DNA from: Bacteroidota bacterium
Lineage (GTDB): Bacteria; Bacteroidota; Bacteroidia; AKYH767-A; 2013-40CM-41-45
Reading direction: 5' to 3'
Assembly: GCA_043787975.1 (NCBI GenBank)
Contig: JAYVUK010000016.1
Coordinates: 351 to 64,350, forward strand
Length of the DNA stretch: 64,000 nucleotides
In this document: in pieces, positions 6,878 to 62,104 of the stretch
Numbering within the stretch: the first letter of the stretch is position 1
How the letters are laid out: every line of letters starts with the position of its first letter
Translations under genes and position numbers: made by a program
Notes under the pieces: generated by a model
The model's database searches: none
What the model saw: only the letters and a program-made list of their open reading frames with translations
What the model was told of the DNA's origin: nothing

Positions 6878-7447
6878 TTAAGGACTTGTAAAATCAAAGC
6901 TTGCAATTGCATCATTGAATCTGACAGGGTTTTTGCTCCATGTTTCAATCGAATTACGCTGGCGGATAACAATGTAATACGAGTTACTCAAAACAGATGT
7001 CGGGAATCTCACATCCGCACTTCCACTGGTGTGAAGCAACACATTCACCGAAGTAAAAGTTGAATAGGGAGATGTTGCATTGTGCAACTCAACCGTTATT
7101 GAATCACAGGCCGTTGGGCTGGCGTTCAGACTATCATTGAATAACACCGGCTGCATTTGTCTATTCCCCAGATAAAATCCTTCAATAAATACTTTGAGAT
7201 TTATAATCTTAAGAAAAATATATGGTTGCTGATTTCCCTGTGTCAACATTTTTGTTCCACTTATCAAACTAGTATTGCATGGTTCTCCCATCGTCCAGGA
7301 AAGCGATTTGCCACCGGCTGAAAAATATCCTCCGCAGGAAGAAGTTGTTTTTGGACTGAGTATTTGGGAGTAGCAGTTGGGAGCAGCAGTAAGGAGAAGG
7401 AAGCAGATTTTTATTATTATTTTAATTGATTGGCTGAATTTTTTCAT
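6878..7447 (-). CDS. Secreted 189-aa protein consisting of a ~110-aa domain that is also present near the C-terminus of the giant 52262-62104 protein
   Basis: Signal peptide MKKFSQSIKIIIKICFLLLTA. Segment LKVFIEGFYLG...CDSITVELHNATSP...YYIVIRQRNSIETWSKNPV aligns with VNVKAYFEGYY...CDTVIVELHAATGAP...YYIAVRHRSAIWTWSTNPV of the giant protein. Confidence 0.75.
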   Translation of the reverse strand: MKKFSQSIKIIIKICFLLLTAAPNCYSQILSPKTTSSCGGYFSAGGKSLSWTMGEPCNTSLISGTKMLTQGNQQPYIFLKIINLKVFIEGFYLGNRQMQPVLFNDSLNASPTACDSITVELHNATSPYSTFTSVNVLLHTSGSADVRFPTSVLSNSYYIVIRQRNSIETWSKNPVRFNDAIASFDFTSP

Positions 7448-7468
7448 CGAACTAGTTTTGGGTGGTGA

Positions 7469-9853: not shown

Positions 9854-9990
9854 GACGGGATATATTTCTTGATGTAATTTTCCGAAAAATACCAGCGTCA
9901 TGAAATAGCATGATGGTGTTAACACTAAAATGTCACGACCAATCTCAAATTATATCCTCGGAAATTTTAAGGAGCGTGAATAATCACGTA

Positions 9991-33184: not shown

Positions 33185-34246
33185 TTACAAACTAAATCGT
33201 GCTCCGAAAGAATGCGTTCCGCTAAACGGATCGGTCGCGCGATAAGAATAATCTAAACCAAAAGTTTTTCCGGTTTTCCCGAGCGGAACCTGGAACGTAA
33301 AACCTGCCGAAGGACCTGTATAAACAGTGGTTCTCAGGTTATCATCGAAAATATTATTTTCATACGTAAATCCTCCGCGAAGCATGAAGTAATTTTTAAA
33401 CCCATATTCAAGTCCAAGCGAGTATTGATCATTTGAAAATGAATTGGAATTAAAAGTTCCGGCAACAGAGATACGATGATCCTTTGCAGGGAGAATGTCG
33501 TAGGTAACTCCGATATTAACCAACGACGGCATTTCAAAACCGGACGAACGTTGCTCAAGTGTTAATTCATAACCTGCGGGAGTTGTCACACGCGTTGATA
33601 ATCCGTCACCTCCAAATTTCATTGGTGTTCCGACATTTTTTAAAGCAATACCGAATTTCAAATTGTCTTTGTCTTCGTTAGAACCGGTTACATATTGAAT
33701 TCCGGCATCCACGGCAAAACCTCCTGCACTTACATTGGAAATACTTTCATCGATCACTTTCACATTGATTCCTCCATAGATGCTGTGAGAAAATGTTTTC
33801 GCATAGGACAGGTTAATGTTAATCAGGCTTGGAGAAAATGTTCCCAGCCCGCCATCAGGGCTTTCCGTGGTTGTAACAGCAATATCACCAAAATCCATCG
33901 CCATTACTGCAAAGCCAAATGCACCACCTGACTCACCCAGTTTTTGGGTCATTCCGAATGCATTCACATTGATCTCCGATCCTTTGAGCCACTCTGTGTG
34001 TGACACTACAATATCGGTCTGTTTTGTAAACGCAATACCGGCTACATTTCCAAAAATAGCTTCCACTCCATGAACGGATCCGGAGTTTGCACTTCCCCAA
34101 CCGGATGACCTTGCCCAGGGATTAATGAGAAGTTCTGTCGCTCCGGCTTGTCCGGCACGATCAGGATTTCCCGCTTTTATTTTCGCACACGGAAAAACAA
34201 TTGCTGCGATGGATAAAGTAACAATGTATTTATAGAGCTGTTTCAT
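33185..34246 (-). CDS. Outer-membrane beta-barrel protein, PorV/LptO-like (FadL-fold T9SS shuttle); assignment tentative
   Basis: Signal peptide. AGQAGATELLINPWARSSGWGSANSG resembles the conserved N-terminal PorV motif (LLIxPDARSxGMG). Ends in aromatic F-x-x-R-F-S-L. Located directly downstream of a large protein with a divergent T9SS CTD. Confidence 0.45.
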   Translation of the reverse strand: MKQLYKYIVTLSIAAIVFPCAKIKAGNPDRAGQAGATELLINPWARSSGWGSANSGSVHGVEAIFGNVAGIAFTKQTDIVVSHTEWLKGSEINVNAFGMTQKLGESGGAFGFAVMAMDFGDIAVTTTESPDGGLGTFSPSLININLSYAKTFSHSIYGGINVKVIDESISNVSAGGFAVDAGIQYVTGSNEDKDNLKFGIALKNVGTPMKFGGDGLSTRVTTPAGYELTLEQRSSGFEMPSLVNIGVTYDILPAKDHRISVAGTFNSNSFSNDQYSLGLEYGFKNYFMLRGGFTYENNIFDDNLRTTVYTGPSAGFTFQVPLGKTGKTFGLDYSYRATDPFSGTHSFGARFSL

Positions 34247-34290
34247 ACGCTATTCTTGTGTTCTGTTTGTTTATATATGATATGCAAGAT

Positions 34291-38379: not shown

Positions 38380-38421
38380 CTTATACGTATTTATTTTAAG
38401 TTTCTTAGTAGATAATTAAGA

Positions 38422-47754: not shown

Positions 47755-50700
47755 TTACTGAACAACAACTCTCATTGTTTGAATTTCTGCTCCTTCTCTT
47801 TCGATACTCAACAGGTACATACCTTTTGCATAACTGCTCAGGTCAATTTCCTGGATGTTAGCACCTGCTTGCGCTGTACTTGGCTGGCTCATCATTACAT
47901 TACCAATCAGGTCAACTACTTTAAGAGTATATTTCTCTTTCATTGAAGCGTTGAATGTTACATTCAATTTACCTGAAGTCGGGTTCGGATAAGCATTCAT
48001 TTCAGAAGCAATTGCTGCTTCGTTTGCTGTACGGCAAAGTAAGTTCACTGAAATTGGAAGTGTTCTTGGCGCTGCTGCTCCTCCGCATGCATTGCTTGCA
48101 GTTACTGTAAGTGTAGCAAAGTTCGAAGTTGCAGTCGTGAAGTTCACGGTTGCATTCGCACCTGCTCCAACTACGGTAGCTCCACCTGTAATTGACCAAG
48201 TATAAGTAACACCTGCTACCGGACCAACTGAGTAGTTACCTGCAGCTGTGCTCTTACAAACACTGCTTGAACCTGCAATTGCGCCCGGCTGATCAGGACG
48301 TGCAGACACCGTTAAGCAACGTGCAGTTCCACCACCACAAGCATTCACCGCAGTTACACAAACACTACCTGTGTTGGTAAATCCAGCACCGTAGTTAACG
48401 GTCATGGTTAAAGAAGCTGTGTTATTCGGAGATGCCATGGTAGCACCTGCAGGCACTGTCCATGAATAAGATGTTGCACCTGCTACCGCAGAAACTGTAT
48501 AAACAACACCTGACTGTCCGCATAAATTTGAAGCAGTACCTGTAAGTGTAGCTGGTTGAAGCGGAGTAGAACGAACTGCAACAACTCTCACCGGACCTGC
48601 TCCACAACCGCTGCTTCCATAAACGCTTACGTTACCTGATACAAACCCAACAGGGAATGTAATGTTCACGCAATATGTATTACCAGGCAATGTCTGAGGA
48701 GTTGGAAGGCCGTTAATCAACGAACCTGCCGGACCTGACCATGTAATAGAAGTAGCGCCATTAAATGGAGATACACAATATTGAACCGTACTTCCACCAC
48801 ATACACCGATGTTAGGGAAAGAAGCTTGTTGCGGCATGCTGGTTATTGCTCCGTAAACGAAGAGAGAGTTCTCACCGCTGATACCTGAACAACTTACAGC
48901 ATAAACGCGAACCTGTCCACTGTTAAAGCCGGCAGCAACATTCACAGAAATTGTAGTTGAACCTTGTCCAGCTGCGAGTGTAAAGCCTGTTCCTGTAACT
49001 GTCCATACATACGAAGTTGCATTGGCAGCCGGAGGAATAGAATACGTTACGGTTGTAGGACCGCAAACACTAAGAGAAGGTCCTGCAGGTTGAGCAGGGA
49101 ATGCAGGTCTGCCGGTAATAACCGGAACAGGAATGCAAGATGCTGAACTTGTACCGCAAGCATTGGTAGCAGTTACACAAATGAATCCGCCACCGTACGT
49201 AAGACTATAGTTAACAGTAATTGAATTGGTTGTTGAAGAACCACTTGCTCCAATTGGAAGTGTCCAAGCGTACGTCATACCCGGTACATTTGCAACGGTA
49301 TAAACAATACCAACCTGGCCTTTACAAGCACCTGCTGGACCGGCAATTGCACTTGGTTGTGCCGGAGCTGCTCCAACACCTACTACAACAGCAGTAGCTG
49401 TACCTGTACAACCTGAATTATCAGTAATTGTAACAGTATAAGTACCTGCAGCAAGACCTATTGCTGTTTGTGTAGTCTGAACCGGAACAGAGTTCCATGA
49501 ATAACCGGTATATGTTCCGCTTCCACCGCTTGGTGTTACAGAAGCTGTACCTGTTGAACCTCCACAGCTACTGTTTGTAGTTGAGGTAGCTCCTTCAATT
49601 TTATCAGGCTCTGTTAAATGTACATTGCCTGAAGTACCTGAACATCCTGCGTTATCTGTTACAGTGAAAGTATAATCACCTGCAGTATAACCACACAAAA
49701 GACCTGTAGAACCCGGTGCATATGATCCACTACCACCTGTCGCTGATACGTTAACGCAAGTTGAGTAACCGAAACACTGGATTGGCGCATTTGGAGTTGC
49801 AGTAACAAGAACCGGATTTGATGTATGGAATACACCGGTTGGCTCAACACAACCATCTGCTGTACAAGGATTGCCGTCATTGGTATTAACCGAAGGGTGA
49901 ACTGTATTTCCTGCAGCACAATTATCTTGTGTACAAACCAAACCATCGCTAGTTCCACCACCTGTGTTCGTTAAGTTGGTATGGAACACGCCTGTTGGCT
50001 CGGTACAACCATCAGCTGTACAAGGATTGTTGTCATTTGTTGGAAGTGCATTGTGAACCGTTACTCCGTTGTTACAATCATCAGACGTACAAGCTAAACC
50101 ATCGTTTGCGCCACCACCTATATTGGTTAAGTTGTTATGGAACACGCCTGTTGGCTCTGTACAACCATCAGCTGTACAAGGGTTGTTGTCATTTGTTGGA
50201 AGTGCATTGTGAACAACTACTCCGTTGTTACAATCATCAGAAGTACAAGCTAAACCATCGCTTGATCCACCACCTATATTGGTTAAGTTGTTATGGAACA
50301 CGCCTGTTGGCTCTGCACAACCATCAGCTGTACAAGGGTTGTTATCATCTGTAGGAAGTGCATTGTGAACTGTTACTCCGTTGTTACAATCATCCGATGT
50401 ACAAGCTAAACCATCGCTCGTTCCACCGCCTGTGTTCGTTAAGTTGGTATGGAACACGCCTGTTGGCTCTGTACAACCATCAGCTGTACAAGGGTTGTTA
50501 TCATCTGTAGGAAGTGCATTGTGAACAACTACTCCGTTATTACAATCATCAGAAGTACAAGCTAAACCATCGTCTGATCCACCACCTGTGTTTGTTAAGT
50601 TCGTATGGAACACACCTGTTGGTTCAACACAACCATCCGTTGTACAAGGATTGTTATCATTGGTTGAAATCGGATTATTAACTGATACACCGTTGTTACA

Positions 50701-51765
50701 ATCGTCAGAAGTACAAGCTAAACCATCGCTTGTTCCACCGCCTGTATTTGTTAAGTTCGTATGGAATACACCGGAAGGATTTGTACAACCATCTGCCGTA
50801 CAAGGGTTACCATCGTCTGTTGGAACATTTGTATGAGATACACCTGTTATAGGATCACAAGCATCTGCAGTACAAATATTGTTGTCATCAGAAGATGCAC
50901 CTGGGCTAGTTGTCCAGTTTACTGTATTCGATACACAACCTGCAGTCACAATTACATTATGAGGACCAACAGAAAGACCCGGAATATTAATCGTAGTTCC
51001 AGAAAAGGCAACACCAACACCTCCATCAAGAGAATACGTACCTGATGCTGAAAATCCTGAACCTGATAATGTAATTTGTGCAGAACCATTGCTCCCTCCT
51101 AAACAAACCGGAGGAGTGTTACCTGTAAGAGCCGCTGTTAAATTACAACCATTTAATTGAATTGCACAGGCAACTACACCCGATGCAGTACCAGTGGATG
51201 CACTGATTGGCTGAGACACTGTATTTCCATCTACATAAGATGTAGCAATACACTGTGTAAGACCACCACCCGATGCCATTTGAAGAGCAAAAGCAGGATT
51301 ACTATTCGCTGTCCATGCTGTCGTATTGGTAAAAGTAAATCGACCCACTTTAACCGGAACGCCAGGAGGCAATGTAGGCGCACTACCTTCTACAACCGGA
51401 CTTTCAGTAATTCTTAAATGATGCGTTGTAAGCGTGTGACTAACCGTGTACGCATTTGTGGTAAAGCCGGGTTGCGACAGGATAGGATCCTTCGATCCTG
51501 CCACAAACACATAAGCGCTTGCAGTGGGAGTACCACCATTTAGAATAGTCGCAGAGTAATTAACTCCAAATGAGCAACCACCTAATTTAACCTGCGAAGT
51601 ACCATCATTGGTAAGGTACAGATCGTAGGATACTGAGTTCGTTGTGGAAGAGCAGCCTTGTAATGTGAATGTAACATGGTTCTGTGAAAACCCTGCTAAA
51701 GACAGCAAAACAAAACACACCACTAACCACATTTTTCGTAACTGATTTGTTGATGTTGTTTTCAT
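47755..51765 (-). CDS. Large (1336 aa) secreted adhesin-like protein: tandem Dictyostelium-type Cys repeats (D-x-N-P-C-T-x-D-x-C), SprB-type repeats, Ig/PKD-like domains and T9SS C-terminal sorting domain
   Basis: Signal peptide. About seven 52-aa units of DDNNPCTADGCTEPTGVFHTNLTNTGGGTSDGLACTSDDCNNGVTVHNALPT. SprB-like GSGSYAPG...YTFTVTDNAGCSGT...YTVTITDNSGCTGTA. C-terminal MNAYPNPTSGKLNVTF...LKVVDLIGNVMM...GMYLLSIEREGAEIQTMRVVVQ. Confidence 0.85.
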   Translation of the reverse strand: MKTTSTNQLRKMWLVVCFVLLSLAGFSQNHVTFTLQGCSSTTNSVSYDLYLTNDGTSQVKLGGCSFGVNYSATILNGGTPTASAYVFVAGSKDPILSQPGFTTNAYTVSHTLTTHHLRITESPVVEGSAPTLPPGVPVKVGRFTFTNTTAWTANSNPAFALQMASGGGLTQCIATSYVDGNTVSQPISASTGTASGVVACAIQLNGCNLTAALTGNTPPVCLGGSNGSAQITLSGSGFSASGTYSLDGGVGVAFSGTTINIPGLSVGPHNVIVTAGCVSNTVNWTTSPGASSDDNNICTADACDPITGVSHTNVPTDDGNPCTADGCTNPSGVFHTNLTNTGGGTSDGLACTSDDCNNGVSVNNPISTNDNNPCTTDGCVEPTGVFHTNLTNTGGGSDDGLACTSDDCNNGVVVHNALPTDDNNPCTADGCTEPTGVFHTNLTNTGGGTSDGLACTSDDCNNGVTVHNALPTDDNNPCTADGCAEPTGVFHNNLTNIGGGSSDGLACTSDDCNNGVVVHNALPTNDNNPCTADGCTEPTGVFHNNLTNIGGGANDGLACTSDDCNNGVTVHNALPTNDNNPCTADGCTEPTGVFHTNLTNTGGGTSDGLVCTQDNCAAGNTVHPSVNTNDGNPCTADGCVEPTGVFHTSNPVLVTATPNAPIQCFGYSTCVNVSATGGSGSYAPGSTGLLCGYTAGDYTFTVTDNAGCSGTSGNVHLTEPDKIEGATSTTNSSCGGSTGTASVTPSGGSGTYTGYSWNSVPVQTTQTAIGLAAGTYTVTITDNSGCTGTATAVVVGVGAAPAQPSAIAGPAGACKGQVGIVYTVANVPGMTYAWTLPIGASGSSTTNSITVNYSLTYGGGFICVTATNACGTSSASCIPVPVITGRPAFPAQPAGPSLSVCGPTTVTYSIPPAANATSYVWTVTGTGFTLAAGQGSTTISVNVAAGFNSGQVRVYAVSCSGISGENSLFVYGAITSMPQQASFPNIGVCGGSTVQYCVSPFNGATSITWSGPAGSLINGLPTPQTLPGNTYCVNITFPVGFVSGNVSVYGSSGCGAGPVRVVAVRSTPLQPATLTGTASNLCGQSGVVYTVSAVAGATSYSWTVPAGATMASPNNTASLTMTVNYGAGFTNTGSVCVTAVNACGGGTARCLTVSARPDQPGAIAGSSSVCKSTAAGNYSVGPVAGVTYTWSITGGATVVGAGANATVNFTTATSNFATLTVTASNACGGAAAPRTLPISVNLLCRTANEAAIASEMNAYPNPTSGKLNVTFNASMKEKYTLKVVDLIGNVMMSQPSTAQAGANIQEIDLSSYAKGMYLLSIEREGAEIQTMRVVVQ
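49820..50895. repeat. Coding tandem repeat array, period ~156 bp, ~7 copies (Cys-repeat units of the 47755-51765 gene)
   Basis: Near-identical 52-aa units in the translation. The antisense ORF 49995..50354 shows the same periodicity. Coordinates are approximate. Confidence 0.75.
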
Positions 51766-51836
51766 ATTTGTTGATTTTTAGTTGATAGTTATTTAGTTGA
51801 TAGTTATTTGTTGTTCTTGTTATATTTTAATTCCGT

Positions 51837-52172
51837 TTAGAATGGCCTAGCAATGCCTACGAAGTTTGCATTGTTTGCATCCCAGATTGAGAAATCGTCA
51901 AGCGCTGTGTTGCCATCACCATTCAAATCGGTTGGATTGTATCCAAACGCAAAATTGGCATTATCAAAATCCCAAAGGGAGAAATCATCAAGGGCCACAT
52001 TCCCATCCTGGTTCATATCACCTGAATAGATAGCATAAACGGGAACACCGGCTATCGAATCTACTCTAACCATATTATTACCATACGCCTTATTTTGAGC
52101 AAAGGCAGAATTTGTAGCAAATAAGAGCATCAATGCTCCGATTACGAGATAACTTCTTTTCATTGTTTTCAT
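51837..52172 (-). CDS. Small secreted protein consisting of a pair of dockerin-like Ca-binding repeats; paralogue of the C-terminal 60 aa of the giant upstream protein
   Basis: Signal peptide MKTMKRSYLVIGALMLLFATNSAFAQ. DMNQDGNVALDDFSLWDFDNANFAFGYNPTDLNGDGNTALDDFSIWDANNANF is ~80% identical to DINQDENVALDDFSIWDLDNSNFAFGYNPTDLNGDGNTALDDFSIWDANNANF at the end of the 52262-62104 protein. The D-x-N-x-D-G-x-V-x-x-x-D loops are dockerin/EF-hand-like. Confidence 0.8.
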   Translation of the reverse strand: MKTMKRSYLVIGALMLLFATNSAFAQNKAYGNNMVRVDSIAGVPVYAIYSGDMNQDGNVALDDFSLWDFDNANFAFGYNPTDLNGDGNTALDDFSIWDANNANFVGIARPF

Positions 52173-52212
52173 TTTATTTTGAGATTATATTTTTCTCCAA
52201 AGGTAACCTGTG

Positions 52213-52246
52213 AAGTCATGGGCCTTGATTAAGGACCCATGACTTT
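52213..52246. promoter_or_regulatory. Intercistronic stem-loop between the giant gene and the dockerin-only gene
   Basis: AAGTCATGGGCC-TTGATTAA-GGACCCATGACTT, an 11-12 bp stem. On the transcribed minus strand it is not followed by a clean T-run, so it may be an attenuator or processing/stability element rather than a terminator. Confidence 0.4.
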
Positions 52247-52261
52247 TAGGTTAAATATTAA

Positions 52262-55200
52262 TTAAAATATAGGATGTGCGGAGAATACGAAGTTCGCATT
52301 GTTGGCATCCCAGATAGAGAAGTCATCAAGAGCGGTATTACCATCTCCGTTCAAATCCGTAGGGTTATAACCGAATGCAAAATTAGAGTTGTCCAAATCC
52401 CAGATAGAGAAGTCGTCCAAAGCCACGTTTTCATCCTGGTTTATATCACCCATATAGAAACACCATTTTGTACCATACAGTATCTGGTTATCCTGATATG
52501 CTTGATTCTGCGCAGTCGTGAAGTCATAATTAGTTATGGCAGCCAACGTAACCGGGTTGGTACTCCATGTCCAAATAGCACTTCTGTGTCTTACAGCAAT
52601 GTAATACGGTGTTCCGATAGCAGCTACCGAACAAGAACCGGTAACCTGACCGTTGGTACCGATCACAGCTTTGTAACTGTCAATCAAAGCAGGTATTCCA
52701 CTTCCAGGTGCTCCCGTTGCAGCGTGCAATTCAACAATAACAGTATCACACATCAGGTTGGTAGCACCCGGGATACTGAGATCGAACAAAGTAGAATCCA
52801 TTCTACCCCAATCAGAATGATAGTAACCTTCGAAGTATGCTTTCACGTTCACTACTGCGCCACCACCACAAGGAGTAGGTGTAATAGTAACTGAACCTGT
52901 TGCAGTACAACCCGCACCATTTGTTGCAATCACTGTATACACATGAGGACCTGCAGTTAAGCCGGTCGCTACCGGGTTAGCAATACTGGTACTGCTTAAG
53001 TTAGAAGCAGGCGACCATGCATAGGTGAAGACAAAGGCAGGATTATTAACACCACCTGCAATAGTCATCGTGAAATCATTTGTTACACCAAAACCTCCTA
53101 CGTTACATGCACTGGCTGCTGTAGAGAAACGAAGCGCCGTACGCAAACGCACCGGACCGTTATATGCACCCGGAGGCACTGTGAAGGTCACCGTAACATT
53201 TCCACCTGAAGGAACTGCAGTACTTGGAAGAATTGTTTCCAATGCATCTGTCAAAGTTCCATTCGTGTTATAGTCCATAAACACTGCAACATTCTCAGTG
53301 AAACCAGGATTATCATGTAAATAGATCTGGTAGGTAGTACCTGCAGTCAACGTGATTGTTGGCAATGCAGTCTGATCATTATATCCAGGTAATGGAGTAA
53401 ACAATGTATTGTATGACCACAGTACGGTGGCACCTGTTGCATCCTTGATTTTAACAGTGTCGGTGAAATCAGTACCATCAAAGCTGGCATAAGAAGGAAG
53501 ACAATATGCCGGGTTCGCATTGCTATGGAAAGTACCTTGTAATTGCGACGTCAGTGGAGCACAACCCGTTTGCGGTGTTGCAGTCACGCCATCCAGTAAA
53601 ACAGCCGGCGAATATGTTACAGTAATGGACGCGGTAGATGAGCAACCTGATGTCGTTCCTGATACAGTATAAGTAGTCGTTGTAATTGGTGTTGCAATAA
53701 CATCAGCAACGGTACTAGTATTCAGTCCGGTACCAGGGCTCCATACATAATCAGTAGCTCCATGACCATGCAGATGAACGGATCCTGAACCACAAAGTAA
53801 CAATGGCAGGGACTCATCAGCAGTGATCGTAACTGTTGGAGCCGGATTCACGGTAACACTAAGACCAGGAGCTGAAGTAGCTGTAGCCTGAGGTGAACAA
53901 TTGTCTGTTACAACAAGGTAATAGTTATGTAAACCAACAGGAGGTGAAATTACAAGAGGTACTCCTGTTCCAACTACCGGTCCGCCGATACCGTCTGTCC
54001 AAGTATATGAAGTATATGGCGCTCCGCCACCTGTTGCAGTACCATTCAGTGAAATAGTTGAACCGAAACAGATCGTAGGGTTATTCACAGTTGAAGTAAC
54101 TGTTAATGGAGCACCTACAGTAATTGTAATCGAAGACGTGCTGGTACATCCTTGTGCATTGGTAACCGTTACTGTATACGTAGTAGTCGTATTAACCGTA
54201 GCAACCGGGTTCGCAATTGTACTGTTACTCAAACCTGCAGCGGGACTCCATGAATATAAATTCGCTCCTGAAGGAACAGCAAATGTAACATTGATAGTCT
54301 GAGACGGGCCACCACACGATGCCGTATTCACACCACCCCAGTTATTCACCCCGATTGCAGGACGAATGTTATATCCAGGTGTTGTGCAGGTACATGTAGT
54401 TCCATCGGCAGACAATTCCATTGGTAAAGATCCCTGGCAAGCACCGTTTAGTGATCCGCAGGTATTTCCAACCATCCAGACAAACGCACCATCGGTAACG
54501 CTGGTTGTTACATGGTTGTGAAGAGCATTCGCCAAAGTCTGCGCATTTGCAGGTGTTGTCGCCGTTCTTCCGATCGCATCAAATGTTCCTGAAATAGTTA
54601 CACTTTGATAGGATGCAGGAACAAGCGCAGTACAGAAAGCATCCCATGCCTGGCACTGAGCCAAGGTAGGAGTTACTAACGTAGTGAATGAACCTGAATA
54701 CGAAACATTGGTTTGTACACTCGCACCCAACGTGGTTGTACTACCGGCACATACACTAAGGTTAGTGGCTGTAGCCGTTACATTGGATGACAACCCGCTT
54801 ATAACTGTAATAGAAGCAGTACTTGTACAACCCGTTGCTGTAGTTGTTCCCGTCACGGTATAAGTCGTAGTCGCAACAGGTGTTGCAACAGGATTAGAGA
54901 TACTGGTACTGCTAAGACCTAAAGCAGGTGTCCATGCATACGTATCAGCACCTGATCCGGTAAGTTGGATAGAGCCGATACCATTGCAAATCTGACCACT
55001 TTGTGTCACACTAACTGCTGTTCCGGGGAACACGTTTATTGTAGCTGTTGCAGTTGTCGTATTACCACAACCGTCAGAAACGGTAACTGTATAAGGTGTA
55101 GTCACCAACGGGTTCACAGTAATTGAAGTAGTAGTTGCACCTGTTGACCAGCTGTAGCTGTATGGTAAACCGCCACCGGCAACACCGGCAGTAATTGTAA

Positions 55201-58200
55201 CACTTGATCCGGGGCAAACAGTTCCGGAAGGAACTGGTGTAGGAGTTACAACAAGCGGCGCACCAACTATTAAATTAGCTTGTGTGCTTGCACTTTGACA
55301 TGTACCGCTTACGCAACGTGCATAGAACGGATATGTACCAGCTGGAGAGTTGATTCCAGGATTATAAGGCGATCCTGTTGCCACCTGGGTTCCACCAACA
55401 CTTGCATCATACCATGCAACGGTTGACACCGGTGCAGTAAAGTAATATTGTAACGTAGCAGTTGCAGGGAAAGCCGCATCAGGTCCTCCGGTGTTATCAT
55501 TGAAAGACTCGCTATACGTAATGTTCACTGAACCACCGGCAGGGTTTAACAAGTTCACAAGAGTAATTGAATCGGCAGCAGTACCACCACCACCGGTGAT
55601 CCATGTTGTTCCACCGGTCCAGGTAGTCAATGTTGATCCCTGGAAGCAAGGCGATGTTCCGATAATTCCGGAACCGTTGAATGCAAGACGTATCTCACTT
55701 CCAAACGTACCCGTAACAACCTGTGTAATTCCGTTGATGATAAGATGTGCGCCAATAACGGTTACACCCGGAGGCGTTGCAGGAAGAGTGAATGTTGCGA
55801 TGGTATTGATTCCAGGACATAATCCCTCATCAGAAGAAGGATTGGTTAAAGGAATCGTGATAGAACCTGATAATACACCACTCAAACAAGAAGCCGTTAA
55901 ATTCTGTGCAGTCGTTGATCCACCAAGACACTGATTGTAACCGGTCACTGTAGGAGCTGTAGGAATTGCATCTACCGTAATGGTCTGTGAAGCAGTTGCA
56001 TTACATCCTAATGTAGTATATCCTGTAACGGTATAGGTAGTTGTAGCAGAAGGGCTGGCATTTACAGGAGATCCTGTAGTTGCATCTAACCCTAAAGCAG
56101 GCGCCCATGTATAGTTACCTGATCCGCTCGCTGTAAGCTGAACTGATCCTGACACGCAATAACGTGCAGCAGCAGGTACCGGAGAAACAGTAATCACATC
56201 CGGAGCAACTACGCTAAATGTAAAGTTAGTACAACCTGAAGAAGCACCAAATGTATTTCTTGGCTCAATTCTCCATGAATACGTACCTGACGTCAATGCA
56301 CCTGTTGTGAAGGTAAGTCCAGCCTGTGCAGAAGAAATCAATGTAGCTGCCGGAGGGCCGCCAGCACTGAAATACACGTCGTAACTTGTTGCGCTGAAAG
56401 CAGCTGGCCAGCTTAGTGTAACCGGGCCTGTACAAACAGTACTTCCTGTTGCAGGAGTTGTTGGAGCCGGGATACAAGGAGGAACGGCAGCATTGATACA
56501 AATATCAAATGTAGAACCGATTCCACCTGAACCTGCAGCGGCATCGTACACTCTCACGAAATACCTGTTTCCGACTACAAGACCACCGACAATTGCGCTT
56601 TCAGTAGCACCTGCTCCTGTAAGGTTACGGCAAAGAATGCTTGTTTTTGTACCGCAGTTTCCAGGAGATACTCCTGCATCCCAAACTTCAAATACGGGGT
56701 TGTAACCACCGTTTCCGGTTACTGTAATGGATGCGCTTGTATTGATCGCATCGAAACTGTACCATACATCATCATCGGCAATACCGTTGCAAGATACTTC
56801 GGCAGAAGCAGTAGCAGCGCTTGTTACAACACCGTTTATTGCATTCTGTGAACATACACCTGCGGTTACCGTTCCCGGTACGCAGGTAGAATTTGTTAAG
56901 TTAGTTAAGCGGATTGCTGTAGCACATTCGTCATTCGCGGCTTTTGCAAATACGATGATACCAAATTCACCTGTTGGTCCCCAATCAGGACTTTCTATTG
57001 AAACAGTAGGAGCAGATGTGTAATTATTTCCACCCGCACCAAGAGTAATTGAAGTTACAGCTCCTGCTCCGATATTTATATATGCCGAAGCATTTGAACC
57101 GCCACCACCTGAGAACGTCACACGTGATGAACTAGCAACTCCTAATGTACCACCTACGGTATAGTTTGAACCAGGATTTGTAATGGTAAATCCTGATACA
57201 GAAGTACCTGTTAAGATAGCAGTCGCAGTTGCAGTAGTTCCGGTCTGGTTATGATAAACACGCGCATAATACGTAGCCCCCGGAGATAAACCGGACATAT
57301 TAGCCACCACCGTCAAACCTATTGTACCCAATTGGCACTGAGGAGTGGACAATGGTAAATAAGACGCATCTAAGATTTGTAATTTCGGAATATAACCTCC
57401 TGAAGCATAGATTTTAACCTGCATGCTAGGGTCATTCGCAACAAACGAGAACCATACATCTTTCGAGTTTGGTAACGCATCGCACGTTGAAACATCCACT
57501 GAAGGAGTTGCATAACGGGTTGTAAAGAAGTTTGATGAATTGGTTGTATTGTTCCATGCAATGTTTGTAGGGAATGCCGTTAAAGCAGGCAACGGAATCG
57601 GGTTGAACGACTCATCGTTATCAGGAGCCGTAGGAACAGGAATAGAATAGCCACCATAAACTCCCGGTGTAAATTTGATTCTACTATGCGGATCCGGAGA
57701 AATTGCCAAACTATTCACACCTACGTTTGCAGCTGCAGTGGCAATGGTATCAAAAGCATTCTTATTTTCAAATTGCTGCGCAAAAACTTCACCTTTCTTT
57801 GGTGCTGCCGAAATAACCGCTCCGTTTAAACCACATGAATAGGAATACCGGAGATTCACCGTACCGTTATACAACTGCATGTTGCCATAATTGTAAGCAA
57901 TGCTGTTATCAGTTTCATCCAATACAATTTGGAAATAAAGCTCTGGCCCGAGATTTCCGAATGCAGTCATCTTCCACCATTCAGCAGTTATTTTTCTGCT
58001 ACCAATAGGATCGGAAGAAATATAATAACGCATCGCACTAGGGATCTGAGCTGTCGTATTCGGATTCGTAGTAAGGTCATCCCAAAACGCAGCAAGACAA
58101 TTATTAAGTGTACCGCTTCCAATTTGGTTGAGCCAGGTTGAGTAGGTTGGAGAAGCAAAGAAGTTTTGCAAAATAACATATCCATTTGTACATGCTCTGA

Positions 58201-61200
58201 AACCGGTAACGGTAACTCCCTGGTATTGGAAAGTAGAAGAAGGTATTGTCACAACATTTGACACACCATCATCAGAACTTGCTATACCTGAATATACAAG
58301 CCCTGTTCCATCACCACCCTGCACAACGGGCATGATTGAGTTAAAATTAACAGCATTGGATTTTGCAACACTGAATGACAACGGCGTTAGCGGAGTAAAA
58401 CCCGTAGTTGCCCAGGCATAATAATCATCTCCTGTAGGAGCGATCGGACCCGGAGCAACTGTAGCGGTCGTCCTGGAACCTGGAGTAACGAGAGCACCCG
58501 CTGCTGCTGCCGTGCTTCTTACTGTCCATGGACCTGTTGTTGCCGTACCATTGCAGGCGAATAATTTATCGTTATCTGAAGCCAATCCATCACTTGAATT
58601 AAAGTTCATCGTGATGGTCGGGTTGAGACCGAATACAGACGCTCCGAAAGAACCTGCGTTAGCAACGGCTCTGAAACTTCGGTTACCAATTGGTGTACCT
58701 GAAGGAGAAACCGTTCCTGTCGGAGCAGCTGCATCACTTACTGTAACCGTAGTAGTGGTGCTTCCGGTGGTAACCGCTGTAGGAGTGCTACCCGCAAACC
58801 ATCCAAAAGTACCTGAAAAAGGAAAGCTAAACGTGCTTGCTCCTCCTCTTCCTATCACGGTCATGGAGCCATTTTTAATAAATGCATTTGACGCACCAAA
58901 AGTACTTGCTTGACCGGCATAGCCATTCCAGGAGAATTTCAAATTATTACCACCTAAATCCAGTACGTTACCCGGTGTATTCAAACTACCAAACAACACA
59001 AGCGGCGGTGGAGGGAAAGTACCAAATGCCGGAGGTGTATTTGTAGCTGTTGCTGAACCTATCAACGTCAGGTTACCATTTAAAATTAGTCCATTTCCAT
59101 TACCATTTAAAAACAATGCATGCATCTTCCTGCTGGCAGGAATATAAGCATCATCTAATTGAGCAGGGGAAGTTGTTGCAGGAGCAAAAAAGTTAAGAAT
59201 CAACTCGTAACCTGCAATACGTACCGATGGATTCGTTGCAATAGTGGTATAAGTACCTCCTGTTAGAGTTCCTGATCCGATACCAAAAGCACATGAAGGA
59301 GCAACCACATAACCGTAGCCGGAGTTCGTAATGTTAAAGCTTAATATCTGGCCAGTCGCCCCGATGACAGGAGTAGCCGCAGGGAAGCAGTTTGCAGGGA
59401 ATGCAAGCGTCGCTGTTCCTGAACTAAATGCTAAGGTCGGAGGCGTGATGTATGTTTTTGTTACAGTCGTAGCCACATATACGGAAACAATCTTTCCTGA
59501 ATTGACCGTAATGGTAAAATCAGTGCTTAACAAAGCTGTTGCGCCGGCAGGTTGAGTACCGCCAGTTACCGTAATTGTTGGTGCAGTAGTATAACCTGAG
59601 CCCGTGTTTGTAACTAAGTTCAATGCTGTAGGAGGTGAGAAACCAACCTGCGGGGCAATGGAGTAGTTATTACCGCCACCCGTAGTAAACAAGGCACCAA
59701 CACCGGAACTATTTTGAGGATCCGCACTCAACGCATTTACACCTTGATCACTATTAATAGTAAGACCTCCTGTAACTGTACCTTCACCCGATTTTTGAAT
59801 GAGCATCATACTGAACCCGGCAACACTATACGGAACTACAGCTGTAGCTGCCGCAGCCGATCCTGTAGCATTTGGAACAATTACAATTGCAGGACCTGTA
59901 GAAGAAGCATATCCTGTACCTGCGTTTAGCAAGTTTGCGCTACGCACTGTTGAGGTAGCAGCATCCCAATTTACTGAAATCTGTGCTGGCGTACCTACAT
60001 AACGGAAACTACCAACAACTCCTGATACATGAGTAGGAGGGGCAATTCCTTGTGCAGTTGTAAGGACAGCAGTATATAAGTTACCTCCGTAAAAATATTG
60101 TGTTCCTACGGTTAGTGCAGTCGTAATGTACGGATTGCCAATTGTACCGGCAGGCCCTACCCATAAAAATACCGCTGTACCACCTGTAGCGGTAGCTGTA
60201 CCACTGGTGTGGGTCGGAGCGGAAGTACCCGAAGTACCTGCAGTAGAACATACATAAATATCTGTTGTAGTTGTACGCACGTTACCTATCGCCAATGAAA
60301 CACTTGGTACCCAAAGAGCGGAACCCGCACAAGAAGGAATAGGAGCAACGGTATAACCACCACCCATATTTGTAACGACAACATTAGCAACCATGATATT
60401 GAGCGGGCGACCAAAAATTAAGGCCGTATTATCAAATTTTAACAAGCCATTGGTGTTTAAAGAACCTGCTGTTTGAGTTTCCTGTTGAGAAATTGTTAAT
60501 GGCGTAGATGTATTGATTACGTTATTTCCTGAAAACGAAGTAAAACCTTTGATAATACCCCTTGTTCCATCACCTTCAAAGGTACCGGTTCCGTCAAGCG
60601 TGGAAGCAGTACCGTTAAATGTTAAAAAACCGATTGCATAATTCACATACCCATTGTTAGTAAAATTACCGGCTACGTTCACTGTTGGACCCGCCAAAGC
60701 AGTTGTATATGGTAAAAATTTACCACCTGCATTGATTAATACGTTACCGGACATTGATAAAGTGTTTGTGTTGGTAGCATTCCACTGAAGTTGACCGCTA
60801 ACAGTAAGATTAGTCACATTCGCAACCTGATCAACCGTTACAGTTGAACCTGCAGAAATAACAACATTGTCAGTAATTGCAGGCACCGCACCACCCCATG
60901 TAGCAGGACTGCTCCATAATCCACCAAGTGCAATAGAACTTACGAAAGCAGGTGTGGTTTGTGTCCCTGAAACAAAAGTCCCAAAATAAAGAGGACCTCC
61001 GCTACATAAACTATTCATAGAATATACATAGAAATCGTATGTCGTAGACAACGTCAAACCTGTAGCATTAAATGAAGTGGCAGCGCCAGTCGAAACAACA
61101 GTTCCCCCATCACCTCCAATATTTCCACCTATTGAATAAGAAGTTCCATTAACAGGAGTATTATGAGCAGCTCCGGTTGCGTATCTTACCGTTAAATAAC

Positions 61201-62104
61201 TATCTGAACCCGGAGCAGCAGTAAATGAAACTCCAATAATAGAAGGTGAAATAGCAGTCAACACCAAAGCCGAAACAGGATTAGTTGGGGCACCACAAGG
61301 AGCAACAATAGAAACCTGACCTCTTGCACCGGCGCCGCCGGTAGGAGTAGTTGAACTTACCCAACCCTGACCACCAGAACCACCACCACCCGGAGCAATA
61401 CCCGGTTGACCAGCAGCATCAAGACCTAAACCACAAGAAGCGGTAACTCCGCCATTACCTCCAGGAAAAGCACCACTTCCACCAGTACCTATTGTTCCGG
61501 GACAAGCAATATTAGGAGTTGTTCCATTTGCAGCAGAACCTGCTGCTCCTCCACCTTTACCACTTACACCAGCAGAAGTAGTACCCGTAGTTATACCTGC
61601 ACTACCCGCACCACCTGAAAATAAAGTTGTTCCAACAGTACCGGCACCAGCTGCGCCTCCTGCAACTGTTCCACAAGCACTGCCACCTAAACCAGCACCT
61701 CCACCTGTCGCAGTTAATGTTCCGGCAGGACCCGTAAATGTTGTAGTACCTCCAGCACCTCCATTTCCAAGAACCGCTCCAGCAGTACCACCGGCACCAA
61801 TTGTCACTGTATATGTTTCACCGGGAATAACAGTAAACGTACTGGAAGCAAGACCTCCACCGCCACCGCCGCTACCCTCACCCTGAGCAGAGCAAGAAGG
61901 AGAGCCACCACCAGCACCACCACCTCCACCCCAGGCGTAAACGGTAATAGAGGTTACACCAGCAGGCACTGTATAAACGCCGGATGTAGTAAACGTTAAT
62001 TGAGCAAACGAACTCGTGGTCCAAAGTCCTGTTACGAACAAAAGACAAATCAACAGGCGACTGAACCTTGTTGATGCTCCCATAGTGTAATTGTTGTTTT
62101 TCAT
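52262..62104 (-). CDS. Giant (~3280 aa) secreted surface protein: N-terminal glycine-rich domain, many Ig-like/PKD/SprB-type repeat domains, a ~110-aa domain shared with the 6878-7447 protein, and a C-terminal dockerin-like repeat pair; no T9SS CTD
   Basis: Start chosen at MKNNNYTMGASTRFSRLLICLLFVTGLWTTSSFAQ (signal peptide). The ORF track extends it to 62203. N-terminus VYTVPAGVTSITVYAWGGGGGAGGGS...GETYTVTIGAGGTAGA is of Gly-rich-domain type. Repeated TTTYTVTGT.../GCTSTASITV Ig-like modules. Ends ...NPTDLNGDGNTALDDFSIWDANNANFVFSAHPIF. Confidence 0.85.
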   Translation of the reverse strand: MKNNNYTMGASTRFSRLLICLLFVTGLWTTSSFAQLTFTTSGVYTVPAGVTSITVYAWGGGGGAGGGSPSCSAQGEGSGGGGGGLASSTFTVIPGETYTVTIGAGGTAGAVLGNGGAGGTTTFTGPAGTLTATGGGAGLGGSACGTVAGGAAGAGTVGTTLFSGGAGSAGITTGTTSAGVSGKGGGAAGSAANGTTPNIACPGTIGTGGSGAFPGGNGGVTASCGLGLDAAGQPGIAPGGGGSGGQGWVSSTTPTGGAGARGQVSIVAPCGAPTNPVSALVLTAISPSIIGVSFTAAPGSDSYLTVRYATGAAHNTPVNGTSYSIGGNIGGDGGTVVSTGAATSFNATGLTLSTTYDFYVYSMNSLCSGGPLYFGTFVSGTQTTPAFVSSIALGGLWSSPATWGGAVPAITDNVVISAGSTVTVDQVANVTNLTVSGQLQWNATNTNTLSMSGNVLINAGGKFLPYTTALAGPTVNVAGNFTNNGYVNYAIGFLTFNGTASTLDGTGTFEGDGTRGIIKGFTSFSGNNVINTSTPLTISQQETQTAGSLNTNGLLKFDNTALIFGRPLNIMVANVVVTNMGGGYTVAPIPSCAGSALWVPSVSLAIGNVRTTTTDIYVCSTAGTSGTSAPTHTSGTATATGGTAVFLWVGPAGTIGNPYITTALTVGTQYFYGGNLYTAVLTTAQGIAPPTHVSGVVGSFRYVGTPAQISVNWDAATSTVRSANLLNAGTGYASSTGPAIVIVPNATGSAAAATAVVPYSVAGFSMMLIQKSGEGTVTGGLTINSDQGVNALSADPQNSSGVGALFTTGGGNNYSIAPQVGFSPPTALNLVTNTGSGYTTAPTITVTGGTQPAGATALLSTDFTITVNSGKIVSVYVATTVTKTYITPPTLAFSSGTATLAFPANCFPAATPVIGATGQILSFNITNSGYGYVVAPSCAFGIGSGTLTGGTYTTIATNPSVRIAGYELILNFFAPATTSPAQLDDAYIPASRKMHALFLNGNGNGLILNGNLTLIGSATATNTPPAFGTFPPPPLVLFGSLNTPGNVLDLGGNNLKFSWNGYAGQASTFGASNAFIKNGSMTVIGRGGASTFSFPFSGTFGWFAGSTPTAVTTGSTTTTVTVSDAAAPTGTVSPSGTPIGNRSFRAVANAGSFGASVFGLNPTITMNFNSSDGLASDNDKLFACNGTATTGPWTVRSTAAAAGALVTPGSRTTATVAPGPIAPTGDDYYAWATTGFTPLTPLSFSVAKSNAVNFNSIMPVVQGGDGTGLVYSGIASSDDGVSNVVTIPSSTFQYQGVTVTGFRACTNGYVILQNFFASPTYSTWLNQIGSGTLNNCLAAFWDDLTTNPNTTAQIPSAMRYYISSDPIGSRKITAEWWKMTAFGNLGPELYFQIVLDETDNSIAYNYGNMQLYNGTVNLRYSYSCGLNGAVISAAPKKGEVFAQQFENKNAFDTIATAAANVGVNSLAISPDPHSRIKFTPGVYGGYSIPVPTAPDNDESFNPIPLPALTAFPTNIAWNNTTNSSNFFTTRYATPSVDVSTCDALPNSKDVWFSFVANDPSMQVKIYASGGYIPKLQILDASYLPLSTPQCQLGTIGLTVVANMSGLSPGATYYARVYHNQTGTTATATAILTGTSVSGFTITNPGSNYTVGGTLGVASSSRVTFSGGGGSNASAYINIGAGAVTSITLGAGGNNYTSAPTVSIESPDWGPTGEFGIIVFAKAANDECATAIRLTNLTNSTCVPGTVTAGVCSQNAINGVVTSAATASAEVSCNGIADDDVWYSFDAINTSASITVTGNGGYNPVFEVWDAGVSPGNCGTKTSILCRNLTGAGATESAIVGGLVVGNRYFVRVYDAAAGSGGIGSTFDICINAAVPPCIPAPTTPATGSTVCTGPVTLSWPAAFSATSYDVYFSAGGPPAATLISSAQAGLTFTTGALTSGTYSWRIEPRNTFGASSGCTNFTFSVVAPDVITVSPVPAAARYCVSGSVQLTASGSGNYTWAPALGLDATTGSPVNASPSATTTYTVTGYTTLGCNATASQTITVDAIPTAPTVTGYNQCLGGSTTAQNLTASCLSGVLSGSITIPLTNPSSDEGLCPGINTIATFTLPATPPGVTVIGAHLIINGITQVVTGTFGSEIRLAFNGSGIIGTSPCFQGSTLTTWTGGTTWITGGGGTAADSITLVNLLNPAGGSVNITYSESFNDNTGGPDAAFPATATLQYYFTAPVSTVAWYDASVGGTQVATGSPYNPGINSPAGTYPFYARCVSGTCQSASTQANLIVGAPLVVTPTPVPSGTVCPGSSVTITAGVAGGGLPYSYSWSTGATTTSITVNPLVTTPYTVTVSDGCGNTTTATATINVFPGTAVSVTQSGQICNGIGSIQLTGSGADTYAWTPALGLSSTSISNPVATPVATTTYTVTGTTTATGCTSTASITVISGLSSNVTATATNLSVCAGSTTTLGASVQTNVSYSGSFTTLVTPTLAQCQAWDAFCTALVPASYQSVTISGTFDAIGRTATTPANAQTLANALHNHVTTSVTDGAFVWMVGNTCGSLNGACQGSLPMELSADGTTCTCTTPGYNIRPAIGVNNWGGVNTASCGGPSQTINVTFAVPSGANLYSWSPAAGLSNSTIANPVATVNTTTTYTVTVTNAQGCTSTSSITITVGAPLTVTSTVNNPTICFGSTISLNGTATGGGAPYTSYTWTDGIGGPVVGTGVPLVISPPVGLHNYYLVVTDNCSPQATATSAPGLSVTVNPAPTVTITADESLPLLLCGSGSVHLHGHGATDYVWSPGTGLNTSTVADVIATPITTTTYTVSGTTSGCSSTASITVTYSPAVLLDGVTATPQTGCAPLTSQLQGTFHSNANPAYCLPSYASFDGTDFTDTVKIKDATGATVLWSYNTLFTPLPGYNDQTALPTITLTAGTTYQIYLHDNPGFTENVAVFMDYNTNGTLTDALETILPSTAVPSGGNVTVTFTVPPGAYNGPVRLRTALRFSTAASACNVGGFGVTNDFTMTIAGGVNNPAFVFTYAWSPASNLSSTSIANPVATGLTAGPHVYTVIATNGAGCTATGSVTITPTPCGGGAVVNVKAYFEGYYHSDWGRMDSTLFDLSIPGATNLMCDTVIVELHAATGAPGSGIPALIDSYKAVIGTNGQVTGSCSVAAIGTPYYIAVRHRSAIWTWSTNPVTLAAITNYDFTTAQNQAYQDNQILYGTKWCFYMGDINQDENVALDDFSIWDLDNSNFAFGYNPTDLNGDGNTALDDFSIWDANNANFVFSAHPIF

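Follow-up and report, generated by a model that had tools for sequence, protein, structure and literature searches.

Three genes in a row occupy positions 47755-62104 of the window (the whole 64,000-nucleotide stretch of DNA that was analysed), all of them on the minus strand. A first-pass annotation had taken this range for one giant adhesin; the giant is there, but two further genes lie within the range. The gene of the giant secreted protein (52262..62104, minus strand) specifies 3280 amino acids (aa) when read from ATG, in an ORF that stays open to a GTG at 62203. Its Sec signal peptide (cleaved between ..SSFA and Q) is followed by Gly_rich_2, fn3, G8, GBD_T9SS_assoc, Ig_7 and GEVED domains. 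The protein ends with an X module, a 7-stranded beta-sandwich of ~110 aa (52517..52852, minus; residues ~3085-3196), and then a linker hairpin and dockerin (52265..52516, minus; residues ~3197-3280) that run to the C-terminus, ..SAHPIF. A strong RNA hairpin (52204..52253, minus; -28.3 kcal/mol, z -5.9) is predicted in the interval between the giant's stop codon and the next gene, which encodes a dockerin-only secreted protein of 111 aa (51837..52172, minus). This small protein consists of a signal peptide (cleaved between ..SAFA and QNKAY), the linker hairpin and the dockerin, without an X module. The third gene (47755..51765, minus) encodes a candidate anchoring partner of 1336 aa, with a signal peptide, an N-terminal cohesin-like domain (51166..51681, minus; residues ~29-200), Cys-rich Dicty_CTDC repeats and PKD_6 domains, five in number. 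It ends in a T9SS type A CTD (47758..47991, minus; residues 1259-1336).

Elsewhere in the window, a 189-aa secreted protein (6878..7447, minus) has a signal peptide, a ~50-aa 'LTQGNQQPY' motif and an X module, without a dockerin. The gene at 7469..9925 (minus) encodes a tail-fibre-like protein of 818 aa that has Peptidase_S74 as its C-terminal domain. The signal peptides of the giant, 111-aa, 1336-aa and 189-aa proteins, as read by eye, are all cleaved before Gln. The giant, 111-aa and 189-aa ORFs all lie, on the minus strand, where the first-pass annotation had placed them.

The C-terminal tail of the giant protein

The giant's C-terminus had been read as a ~110-aa domain followed by two dockerin-like Ca-loops, and the dockerin-like character of this tail is confirmed. 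Each of its two loops (D-x-N-x-D-x(6)-D) is followed by a helix, and the loop sequences, DINQDENVALDD and DLNGDGNTALDD, are the same in the 111-aa protein. The Ca ligands (D137 N139 D141 D148 and D167 N169 D171 D178) are nearly invariant in an alignment of 40 sequences, and the helices lie at 146-157 and 176-187 of the tail model. The repeats thus have the makeup of a dockerin: two tandem ~22-residue segments, each with an EF-hand-like Ca loop (Asp/Asn at 1, 3, 5 and 12) and a helix.

Pfam and NCBIfam HMM searches of the window proteins, a check that the first-pass annotation had proposed, matched no dockerin, cohesin or X family, so that family-level scans were needed; the dockerin match did emerge among homologues. 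(What this means for Dockerin_1, Pfam PF00404, is that the window's own dockerin copies have no significant match, at E 6.4, and that 28 of 40 family members match at E<=0.01, the best at 3.2e-07.) When the family profile was compared with PDB sequences, the 12 best matches were all solved dockerins (E 1.7e-4 to 0.015) and were confined to the dockerin part; the X part matched no Pfam family in any of the 40 members. In the AF2 model of the X-Doc tail (pLDDT 96.7, pTM 0.91), the X module stands directly N-terminal of the dockerin and packs with it as a rigid unit. The top 10 Foldseek matches of this model are all XDoc chains, and identity to solved XDoc structures is 11-17% in structural alignments. 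This model predicts for the giant's tail the fold that the X-module/type II dockerin dyad has in clostridial scaffoldins. The suggestion that the ~110-aa domain might have a cohesin-like fold did not survive the structure check, which gave the dyad match with the tail instead. The relation of the X module to the clostridial X modules (family X60) may be one of analogy or of very distant homology. A tblastn match of the tail at 39874-40032, within a TonB-receptor gene, is weak (E>1) and is taken as chance.

The absence of a T9SS CTD from the giant, noted earlier, holds in Pfam and NCBIfam, where no sorting domain was matched. X-Doc occupies the C-terminus in place of a type A CTD (TIGR04183 / PF18962), and, its 'CHU_C-associated' Ig_7 domains notwithstanding, there is no match to a type B CTD (CHU_C PF13585, TIGR04131). 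For crossing the outer membrane, no recognised route was found in the giant.

As a tag, X-dockerin is confined strictly to the C-terminus (about 100 ORFs, from 77 loci), and the full tag is found in 3,891 cluster representatives at E<=1e-30 (~3,900 protein clusters). For the window itself, the relatives suggest Chitinophagales-like Bacteroidota. Its carriers are Bacteroidota and Ignavibacteria, and its cargo includes GH18 chitinase, M12B peptidase, Endonuclease I and SprB-repeat proteins, with adhesin-like giants dominating. The dockerin helices are genome-specific: their identity is 0.69 within and 0.38 between genomes, as against 0.45 and 0.40 for the X domain. The observed helix difference exceeds those of all 2000 label permutations and persists when pairs are matched on X identity. 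A caveat is that the genome labels stand for metagenome bins. A helix code common to all X-dockerin proteins of one genome points to one shared, co-evolving receptor per genome. A coarse co-evolution analysis (partial Mantel) of helix identity against identity of the neighbouring cohesins, with X controlled, gave a partial r of 0.14, a value reached or exceeded in 383 of 5000 permutations and not significant. Part of the family-wide signature could stem from gene conversion restricted to the dockerin; saturated synonymous sites (below) tell against recent conversion, but in the small/giant pair alone.

The 189-aa protein had been described as essentially the ~110-aa domain alone, which overlooks the ~50-aa motif at its N-terminus. 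Its X domain is 33% identical to the giant's over 115 aa (E 3e-17), and is thus a diverged paralogue. Nor is the protein a free-standing version of that module of the giant: it comes from a subfamily of its own, in which a signal and a short motif precede X and dockerin, and has lost its dockerin, ending exactly at the X/linker boundary (..DFTSP). The conserved neighbours of this small X(-dockerin) subfamily are Peptidase_S74 tail-fibre-like genes, and the 189-aa protein probably stands outside the giant's cassette.

The dockerin-only gene and its cohesin-like neighbour

The tail of the giant and the 111-aa protein are 69% identical over 86 aa (E 2e-41), and their two-loop core of 61 codons is 87% identical in aa and 75% in nucleotides, so that the earlier estimate of ~80% aa identity with clear DNA similarity was about right. 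The similarities of the giant to both small proteins lie far beyond chance, with own-HMM scores of 100-133 bits. The 111-aa protein is identical to database protein P0021, and further dockerin-only members are present in metagenomes. The gene order giant, dockerin-only, cohesin-like recurs in four other genomes, L003, L004, L028 and L079, making five cassettes with that of the window. Across these five, the helices of the small protein are closer to those of its own giant (identity 0.72) than to those of other small proteins (0.39), and the true pairing of small proteins with giants scores best among all 120 possible assignments. In the linker, on the other hand, small proteins are closer to each other (0.67) than to giants (0.56).

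Two simple origins of the 111-aa gene have to be weighed against this pattern. Its place directly 3' of the giant, whose tail it copies, is what would be expected of a decaying fragment left by tandem duplication (the small ORFs then being a duplication scar). But the gene has its own signal peptide, with cleavage falling exactly at the domain boundary, and it is kept at the same position in the four other genomes. Moreover, pN for the window's small/giant pair is 0.09 while pS is 0.91 (0.61-0.95 across all five cassettes), which signifies strong purifying selection on an old duplicate. The scar is rejected on these grounds, its likelihood being next to nil. The direct repeats, with about 75% DNA identity, could also make of the 111-aa gene a silent cassette that recombines with the 3' end of the giant gene and varies its C-terminus, as the first-pass annotation proposed. 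Yet no identical run exceeds 11 nt in the window (in the other cassettes the maximum is 7-17 nt), the small gene carries a signal peptide of its own, and the aa sequences of the recognition helices are held the same and not diversified. The comparison of related strains that was to reveal recombination turned up two contigs only (L080 and L081, independent metagenome contigs of the same strain), both 100% identical to the window. This origin, too, is rejected as very improbable. Helices that track those of the cassette's own giant while synonymous sites are saturated, together with conservation in five cassettes, argue that the dockerin-only gene is functional. Its product probably competes for the cohesin or caps it.

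The hairpin 3' of the giant's stop codon is found in four genomes (the window, L003, L004 and L028) and, as modelled at 52204..52253, looks like a terminator or attenuator. No RNA structure is predicted ahead of the cohesin gene in the window. A scan for Sigma-70 promoters and terminators, which is ill-suited to Bacteroidota, gave nothing above shuffled expectation.

The first-pass annotation proposed to test the ~110-aa domain for a cohesin-like fold; the domain for which such a fold is predicted stands instead at the head of the 47755-51765 protein, which lay within the annotated range and was left uninterpreted there. The AF2 model of this domain (pLDDT 90.3) agrees with the plan of a cohesin, a jelly-roll beta-sandwich of nine strands in about 140-170 residues. 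The Pfam Cohesin HMM (PF00963) matched 0 of 23 domain sequences at E<=0.1, the domain profile matched no PDB sequence at E<=10, and the domain as a single-sequence database query found nothing; the 23-sequence profile found 217 proteins. The assignment to the cohesins stands on predicted folds only. At its other end the 1336-aa protein matches Por_Secre_tail (PF18962, E 1.6e-14, residues 1259-1329) and TIGR04183 (E 1.3e-12), and Por_Secre_tail terminates 14 of 16 adjacent proteins with N-terminal cohesin-like domains.

In about 15-17 genomes, the gene directly downstream of a dockerin gene is a cohesin-like one; with a start within 600 nt as the limit and the cohesin-like domain at the N-terminus, this is the case for 19 of the 93 dockerin ORFs that have sequence downstream of them, and in 15 of the 49 genomes. 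The other 74 have no adjoining cohesin-like gene, which weighs against the docking cassette proposed below. As a rule, the putative receptor is one N-terminal cohesin, borne by a stalk or by a Coh-CTD protein of ~285 aa. Fusions occur as well: 20 of 120 cohesin-like homologues are Coh-X-Doc proteins, and 1-3 cohesin-like domains were seen within several X-Doc giants. As a conserved partner, the barrel-like gene of 469 aa that lies upstream of the giant (62550-63959) was considered and rejected, no relative adjoining X-Doc genes elsewhere.

A proposed docking cassette and its alternatives

The three proteins can be read together as a dockerin-cohesin docking cassette. The giant carries its predicted X-module/dockerin dyad where a T9SS sorting domain might stand; the 1336-aa stalk protein, encoded two genes downstream, would be exported and kept on the cell surface through its type A CTD at one end, and present the putative cohesin distally at the other. 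Ca-dependent binding of the giant's dockerin by this distal cohesin would then tether the giant. The 111-aa bare dockerin, having the same code and its own signal peptide, might compete for, cap or chaperone the same cohesin and so tune or time the loading of the giant. The RNA predictions part the gene of the 111-aa protein from the giant by a hairpin and place no structure between it and the cohesin gene. The tethering or competition first suggested for the locus is the best fit to a dockerin-only gene that is conserved in four other genomes, matches its own giant in the helices and is saturated at synonymous sites, and we regard the docking cassette as the probable though far from certain explanation.

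There are other readings of the same modules. X-dockerin proteins might be T9SS cargo in trans, folding in the periplasm, plugging into the cohesin of a CTD-bearing partner and hitchhiking through the translocon or being passed on at the exit side; which proteins are exported and displayed would be set by the genome-specific code of the dockerins, and the dockerin-only protein would serve as a placeholder, occupying the cohesin until cargo displaces it. This is unlikely as a whole; if true, it would constitute a second, non-covalent route of T9SS recruitment, open to thousands of X-dockerin proteins without a sorting domain. It is distinctly unlikely that X-dockerin acts by itself as a C-terminal signal for export or sorting, a new type of targeting domain (for the T9SS or another system) which the secretion apparatus would read directly and to which cohesin-like neighbours are accessory or unrelated. 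That no docking takes place, the beta-sandwich of the 47755-51765 protein being a carbohydrate- or ligand-binding module and the dockerin-like repeats Ca-dependent structural or EF-hand-type elements, is quite improbable.

If the docking model holds, a divergent version of the cohesin-dockerin pair, overlooked by standard annotation, is a common means of surface mounting in Bacteroidota and Ignavibacteria, for giant adhesins, chitinases, nucleases and peptidases alike. It would account for a class of large surface-type proteins without a T9SS sorting domain by tying their display to T9SS-anchored receptors. It would also supply, ready-made in nature, orthogonal plug-and-socket pairs that are specific to each genome, and a simple testable case of a stand-alone dockerin as assembly regulator.

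Comparison with known systems

Cohesin-dockerin pairing is familiar above all from the clostridial cellulosomes, which it holds together and in which recognition is species-specific; the genome-specific dockerin helices of the X-dockerin family are comparable. In the clostridial scaffoldins CipA (C. thermocellum) and ScaA (A. cellulolyticus), the X-module/type II dockerin binds type II cohesins of the cell-anchored proteins SdbA, OlpB and ScaB/ScaC (PDB 2b59, 3kcp, 5g5d, 4wi0); X-dockerin dyads at scaffoldin C-termini have been described (PMC3413522). What the predicted fold of the giant's tail has in common with these is an Ig-like X module that packs on a Ca-binding dockerin of two repeats, right at the C-terminal end of a secreted protein of very large size, and the predicted partner, a cohesin fold on a surface-anchored protein, is likewise similar. 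Unlike the clostridial examples, the present proteins belong to Gram-negative Bacteroidota and to Ignavibacteria, at 11-17% identity. Their anchor is a T9SS type A CTD rather than SLH or sortase, their cohesin family is missed by Pfam, and their cassette includes a conserved dockerin-only gene. Their X-Doc is also a general cargo tag of enzymes and adhesins that extends beyond scaffoldins.

The arrangement had been thought undescribed. This appears true of the X-dockerin family, of which no description was found in the literature, but related arrangements have been reported in Cloacimonadota and Chlorobiota. The cellulosome-like system of the cloacimonadote 'Ca. Stygibacter' (FCB group), itself inferred from sequence only, has enzymes with C-terminal dockerins and a cohesin scaffoldin with a T9SS-type CTD for surface attachment (PMC8542988). 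Its domains are canonical and found by InterPro, whereas those described here are cryptic, and its scaffoldin has tandem cohesins and CBMs; the account of it describes neither an X module nor a dockerin-only gene, both present here (PMC8542988). In the Chlorochromatium epibiont, Cag_2038, a giant BIg protein with a C-terminal dockerin, adjoins Cag_2037, which has an N-terminal type II cohesin (bioRxiv 10.64898/2026.03.19.712371). This is again a dockerin-ended giant beside a cohesin-headed neighbour in the FCB group, their interaction being proposed from structure prediction, but Cag_2037 is an RTX protein exported by T1SS in place of a T9SS CTD protein, and the account mentions neither an X module nor a dockerin-only gene nor a tag shared across a family (bioRxiv 10.64898/2026.03.19.712371).

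Anchoring by T9SS type A or type B CTDs (for example, SprB with SprF) operates in the same phyla on the same classes of cargo (giant adhesins, chitinase, nuclease, peptidases), and there, too, a C-terminal module decides surface fate. The giant's tail is neither type A nor type B, however, and its attachment, if the docking model is right, would be non-covalent and in trans, by way of a CTD-carrying partner.

Modules at the giant's C-terminus and their spread

What the first-pass annotation presented as a single adhesin does contain the giant, a 3280-aa protein (52262-62104), but comprises three minus-strand genes, the others encoding a 111-aa dockerin-only protein (51837-52172) and a 1336-aa stalk protein with a cohesin-like domain (47755-51765). 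A 189-aa protein is encoded on the same strand at 6878-7447, 45 kb from this three-gene group. By inspection, all four proteins have an N-terminal signal peptide with cleavage before Gln. Pfam and NCBIfam detect Gly_rich_2, fn3, G8, GBD_T9SS_assoc, Ig_7 and GEVED domains in the giant and, as had been claimed, neither a type A nor a type B T9SS C-terminal sorting domain (CTD); the C-terminal end of the 1336-aa protein is a type A CTD (Por_Secre_tail/TIGR04183).

The resemblance of the giant's C-terminal modules to the two small proteins holds: its tail is 69% identical to the 111-aa protein over 86 aa (E 2e-41; 87% aa and 75% nt identity over the 61 codons of the two-loop core), and its ~110-aa beta-domain, X, is 33% identical to the 189-aa protein over 115 aa (E 3e-17). 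The giant's last 197 residues, used as a database query, retrieve 62 proteins, with X and the two-loop tail together in all of them. The window's dockerin copies score below significance against Pfam Dockerin_1, which is matched by 28 of 40 aligned family members; the 12 best PDB-sequence matches of the family profile are all solved dockerins, and Ca-ligand positions 1, 3, 5 and 12 are nearly invariant in both loops of the family alignment. Judged from predicted structures, the basis also of the cohesin-like assignment discussed below, the giant's tail is an X-module/dockerin dyad (X-Doc). X, for which a test for a cohesin-like fold had been suggested, does not come out as cohesin-like and would instead match the X module in the dyad by which clostridial scaffoldins are anchored (for background see PMC3413522).

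A homologue scan restricted to one genome per species yielded at least 180 relatives, of which 77 loci were kept, from bins of Chitinophagales, Ferruginibacter, Saprospiraceae, Flavobacterium, Crocinitomicaceae and Ignavibacteria; several copies in one genome are common (the genomes compared are mostly metagenome bins). Purpose-built HMMs for X and for linker plus dockerin, with E-values relative to small local databases, place the unit in about 100 ORFs of these loci; it reaches the last residue in almost all of them, in proteins of 220 to over 3500 aa. An exhaustive profile search gives 3,891 cluster representatives at E<=1e-30 (9,617 at 1e-10), and among the 150 best matches listed of the 3,891 the unit is C-terminal in nearly all. 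X-Doc is a widespread, strictly C-terminal tag. Its cargo includes GH18 chitinase with CBM5/12, M12B (reprolysin-like) metallopeptidase and Endonuclease I (enzyme loci L019 7592-10567, L025 6092-10567 and L037 7916-10570, in other genomes), SBBP propellers and SprB-repeat proteins. In studied Bacteroidota, these classes of protein usually carry T9SS sorting domains.

The 189-aa protein, previously regarded as the giant's module in free form, is better placed as a dockerin-less member of another X-Doc subfamily. It shares a signal peptide, a ~50-aa 'LTQG(F/N)QQPY' motif and X with ~260-aa dockerin-bearing database proteins (P0001, P0002, P0006, P0038); its end coincides with the border between X and linker, and the next gene lies 135 nt beyond, a gap too short for a dockerin. 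Like its relatives' genes, its gene adjoins a tail-fibre-like gene with a Peptidase_S74 domain, or the conserved N-terminal region of such genes (window 6878-9925 on the minus strand; homologous loci L001, L027, L040, L063 and L068). Peptidase_S74 is an intramolecular chaperone domain.

A probable cohesin-like partner

When the window's neighbours are compared with the loci by BLAST, matches to the N-terminal ~200-300 residues of the 1336-aa protein turn up directly 3' of X-dockerin genes, and an iterative HMM search finds the homologous domain opening a gene whose start lies -36 to ~450 nt beyond the dockerin gene in about 17 loci. By a strict count, a cohesin-like gene follows 19 of 93 dockerin ORFs with sufficient downstream sequence (15 of 49 genomes). 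A type A CTD terminates 14 of 16 complete neighbouring proteins. No Pfam match to the domain was found among 23 members, and none among PDB sequences.

A profile search with this domain gives 217 relatives, prevailingly of ~285 aa (signal peptide, cohesin-like domain, Por_Secre_tail); fusions of ~411 aa to X-Doc (P0065-type) make up 20 of 120 relatives among the matches listed. Cohesin-like domains, between one and three per protein, also occur within several X-Doc proteins (L042 3857-10561, whose giant has three; L051 5069-9358; L076 8843-10555). Such proteins resemble adaptor scaffoldins and, should their dockerin recognise cohesins of the type they carry, could link up into chains or higher-order assemblies. 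Predicted fold, gene adjacency and fusion support a cohesin-dockerin pairing, and we infer that the giant and its 1336-aa neighbour form such a pair.

Several other features of the window were noted. The stalk's Cys-rich Dicty_CTDC repeats are encoded by a 156-nt tandem repeat (49931-50808; 5.6 copies, 87% match), inside which two independent metagenome contigs 100% identical to the window (L080 and L081) both end, at 50543, so that the number of repeat units may vary or be uncertain. Immediately 5' of the giant lies an ORF of 469 aa (62550-63959, minus strand) whose end, ..GANIGF, resembles that of an outer-membrane beta-barrel; it has no Pfam match, and no relatives were found beside X-dockerin genes of other genomes. 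Also on the minus strand, a gene resembling those of TonB-dependent receptors, with a CarboxypepD_reg domain (38422-42165), is followed by genes for large proteins of 1362 aa (34291-38379) and 353 aa (33185-34246), both without a Pfam match; 33185-42165 may represent a SusC-type locus whose partners go unrecognised.

The dockerin-only gene and a genome-specific helix

The order of large X-Doc gene, ~110-aa dockerin-only gene and cohesin-like/CTD gene is also found in L003, L004, L028 and L079, and metagenomes contain additional dockerin-only proteins, each with a signal peptide of its own. The small proteins share NQDG (vs NQDE in the giants, in 4 of 5 cassettes), a linker and a signal peptide whose cleavage site coincides with the X/linker boundary, which indicates that these genes trace to one old duplication. 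In the linker they are closer to one another than to their own giant (0.67 vs 0.56); in the helices they match their own giant at 0.72 and other small proteins at 0.39, and the real small-to-giant pairing has the best score of all 120 possible assignments.

The first-pass annotation considered that the small gene might be a mere duplication scar, or part of a recombination cassette varying the giant's C-terminus. Between small gene and giant tail, synonymous change has reached saturation (pS 0.91 in the window and 0.61-0.95 across the five cassettes), amino-acid replacements in the window are few (pN 0.09), the longest stretches of identity span 7-17 nt and gene order is kept in four other loci. 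A decaying scar is thereby ruled out, and the short identity runs and saturation argue against a recombination cassette as well as against recent gene conversion between the two. Between 51840-52022 and 52265-52447 the synonymous-difference proportion (0.91-0.93, over ~36 synonymous sites) exceeds the ~0.75 expected at saturation, which may reflect codon choice minimising DNA identity between direct repeats, or chance. The dockerin-only gene is conserved and appears to be functional, its bare dockerin apparently kept matched to the giant's by selection.

A strong, GC-rich hairpin lies directly 3' of the giant's stop codon (52204-52253, minus strand; -28.3 kcal/mol, z -5.9), with equivalents after the large gene in L003 (3025-3078), L004 (10575-10612) and L028 (542-567); no RNA structure is predicted between small gene and cohesin gene in the window. 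The hairpin may be a terminator or attenuator uncoupling the giant's expression from that of the downstream pair, and this arrangement suggests co-expression of the small gene with the cohesin gene and not with the giant. Since a dockerin-only protein can do little except bind, its most economical role would be to occupy the cohesin as a competitor, cap or placeholder.

The helix following each Ca loop is nearly constant inside one genome and different among genomes (ALDDFSIWD in the window, DGLDYNEWE in JADJZY, DNSDYTLWE in OZ260109). Helix identity is 0.69 within and 0.38 between genomes, a difference reached by 0 of 2000 label permutations; for the adjacent X domain the values are 0.45 and 0.40. 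The contrast persists when pairs are matched on X identity (for instance 0.71 vs 0.37 in the 0.3-0.4 range of X identity). The pattern, read here as a genome-specific recognition code, is what one would expect of dockerins that share and co-evolve with a receptor, and gene conversion restricted to the dockerin could contribute to it; a whole-domain partial Mantel test of dockerin against neighbouring cohesin was not significant.

Proposed assembly and known systems

In the best-supported reading, which we consider somewhat more likely than not, T9SS would export the 1336-aa stalk protein and anchor it through its CTD, the stalk's distal cohesin would grip the giant's X-dockerin, and the bare dockerin would modulate occupancy of that cohesin. 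The main gap in this model is the passage of CTD-less X-Doc proteins across the outer membrane.

The arrangement had been thought undescribed. This holds, in the literature searched, for the Bacteroidota/Ignavibacteria X-Doc family, its cryptic cohesin, the genome-specific code and the dockerin-only gene, but related systems are on record: Cloacimonadota have been inferred to possess a cellulosome-like system whose scaffoldin bears a CTD (PMC8542988), and in a Chlorobiota epibiont a giant dockerin protein has been modelled together with the cohesin protein of the adjacent gene (bioRxiv 10.64898/2026.03.19.712371). The closest structural analogue of the giant's tail and its stalk, as predicted, would be the clostridial X-Doc/type II cohesin anchor.
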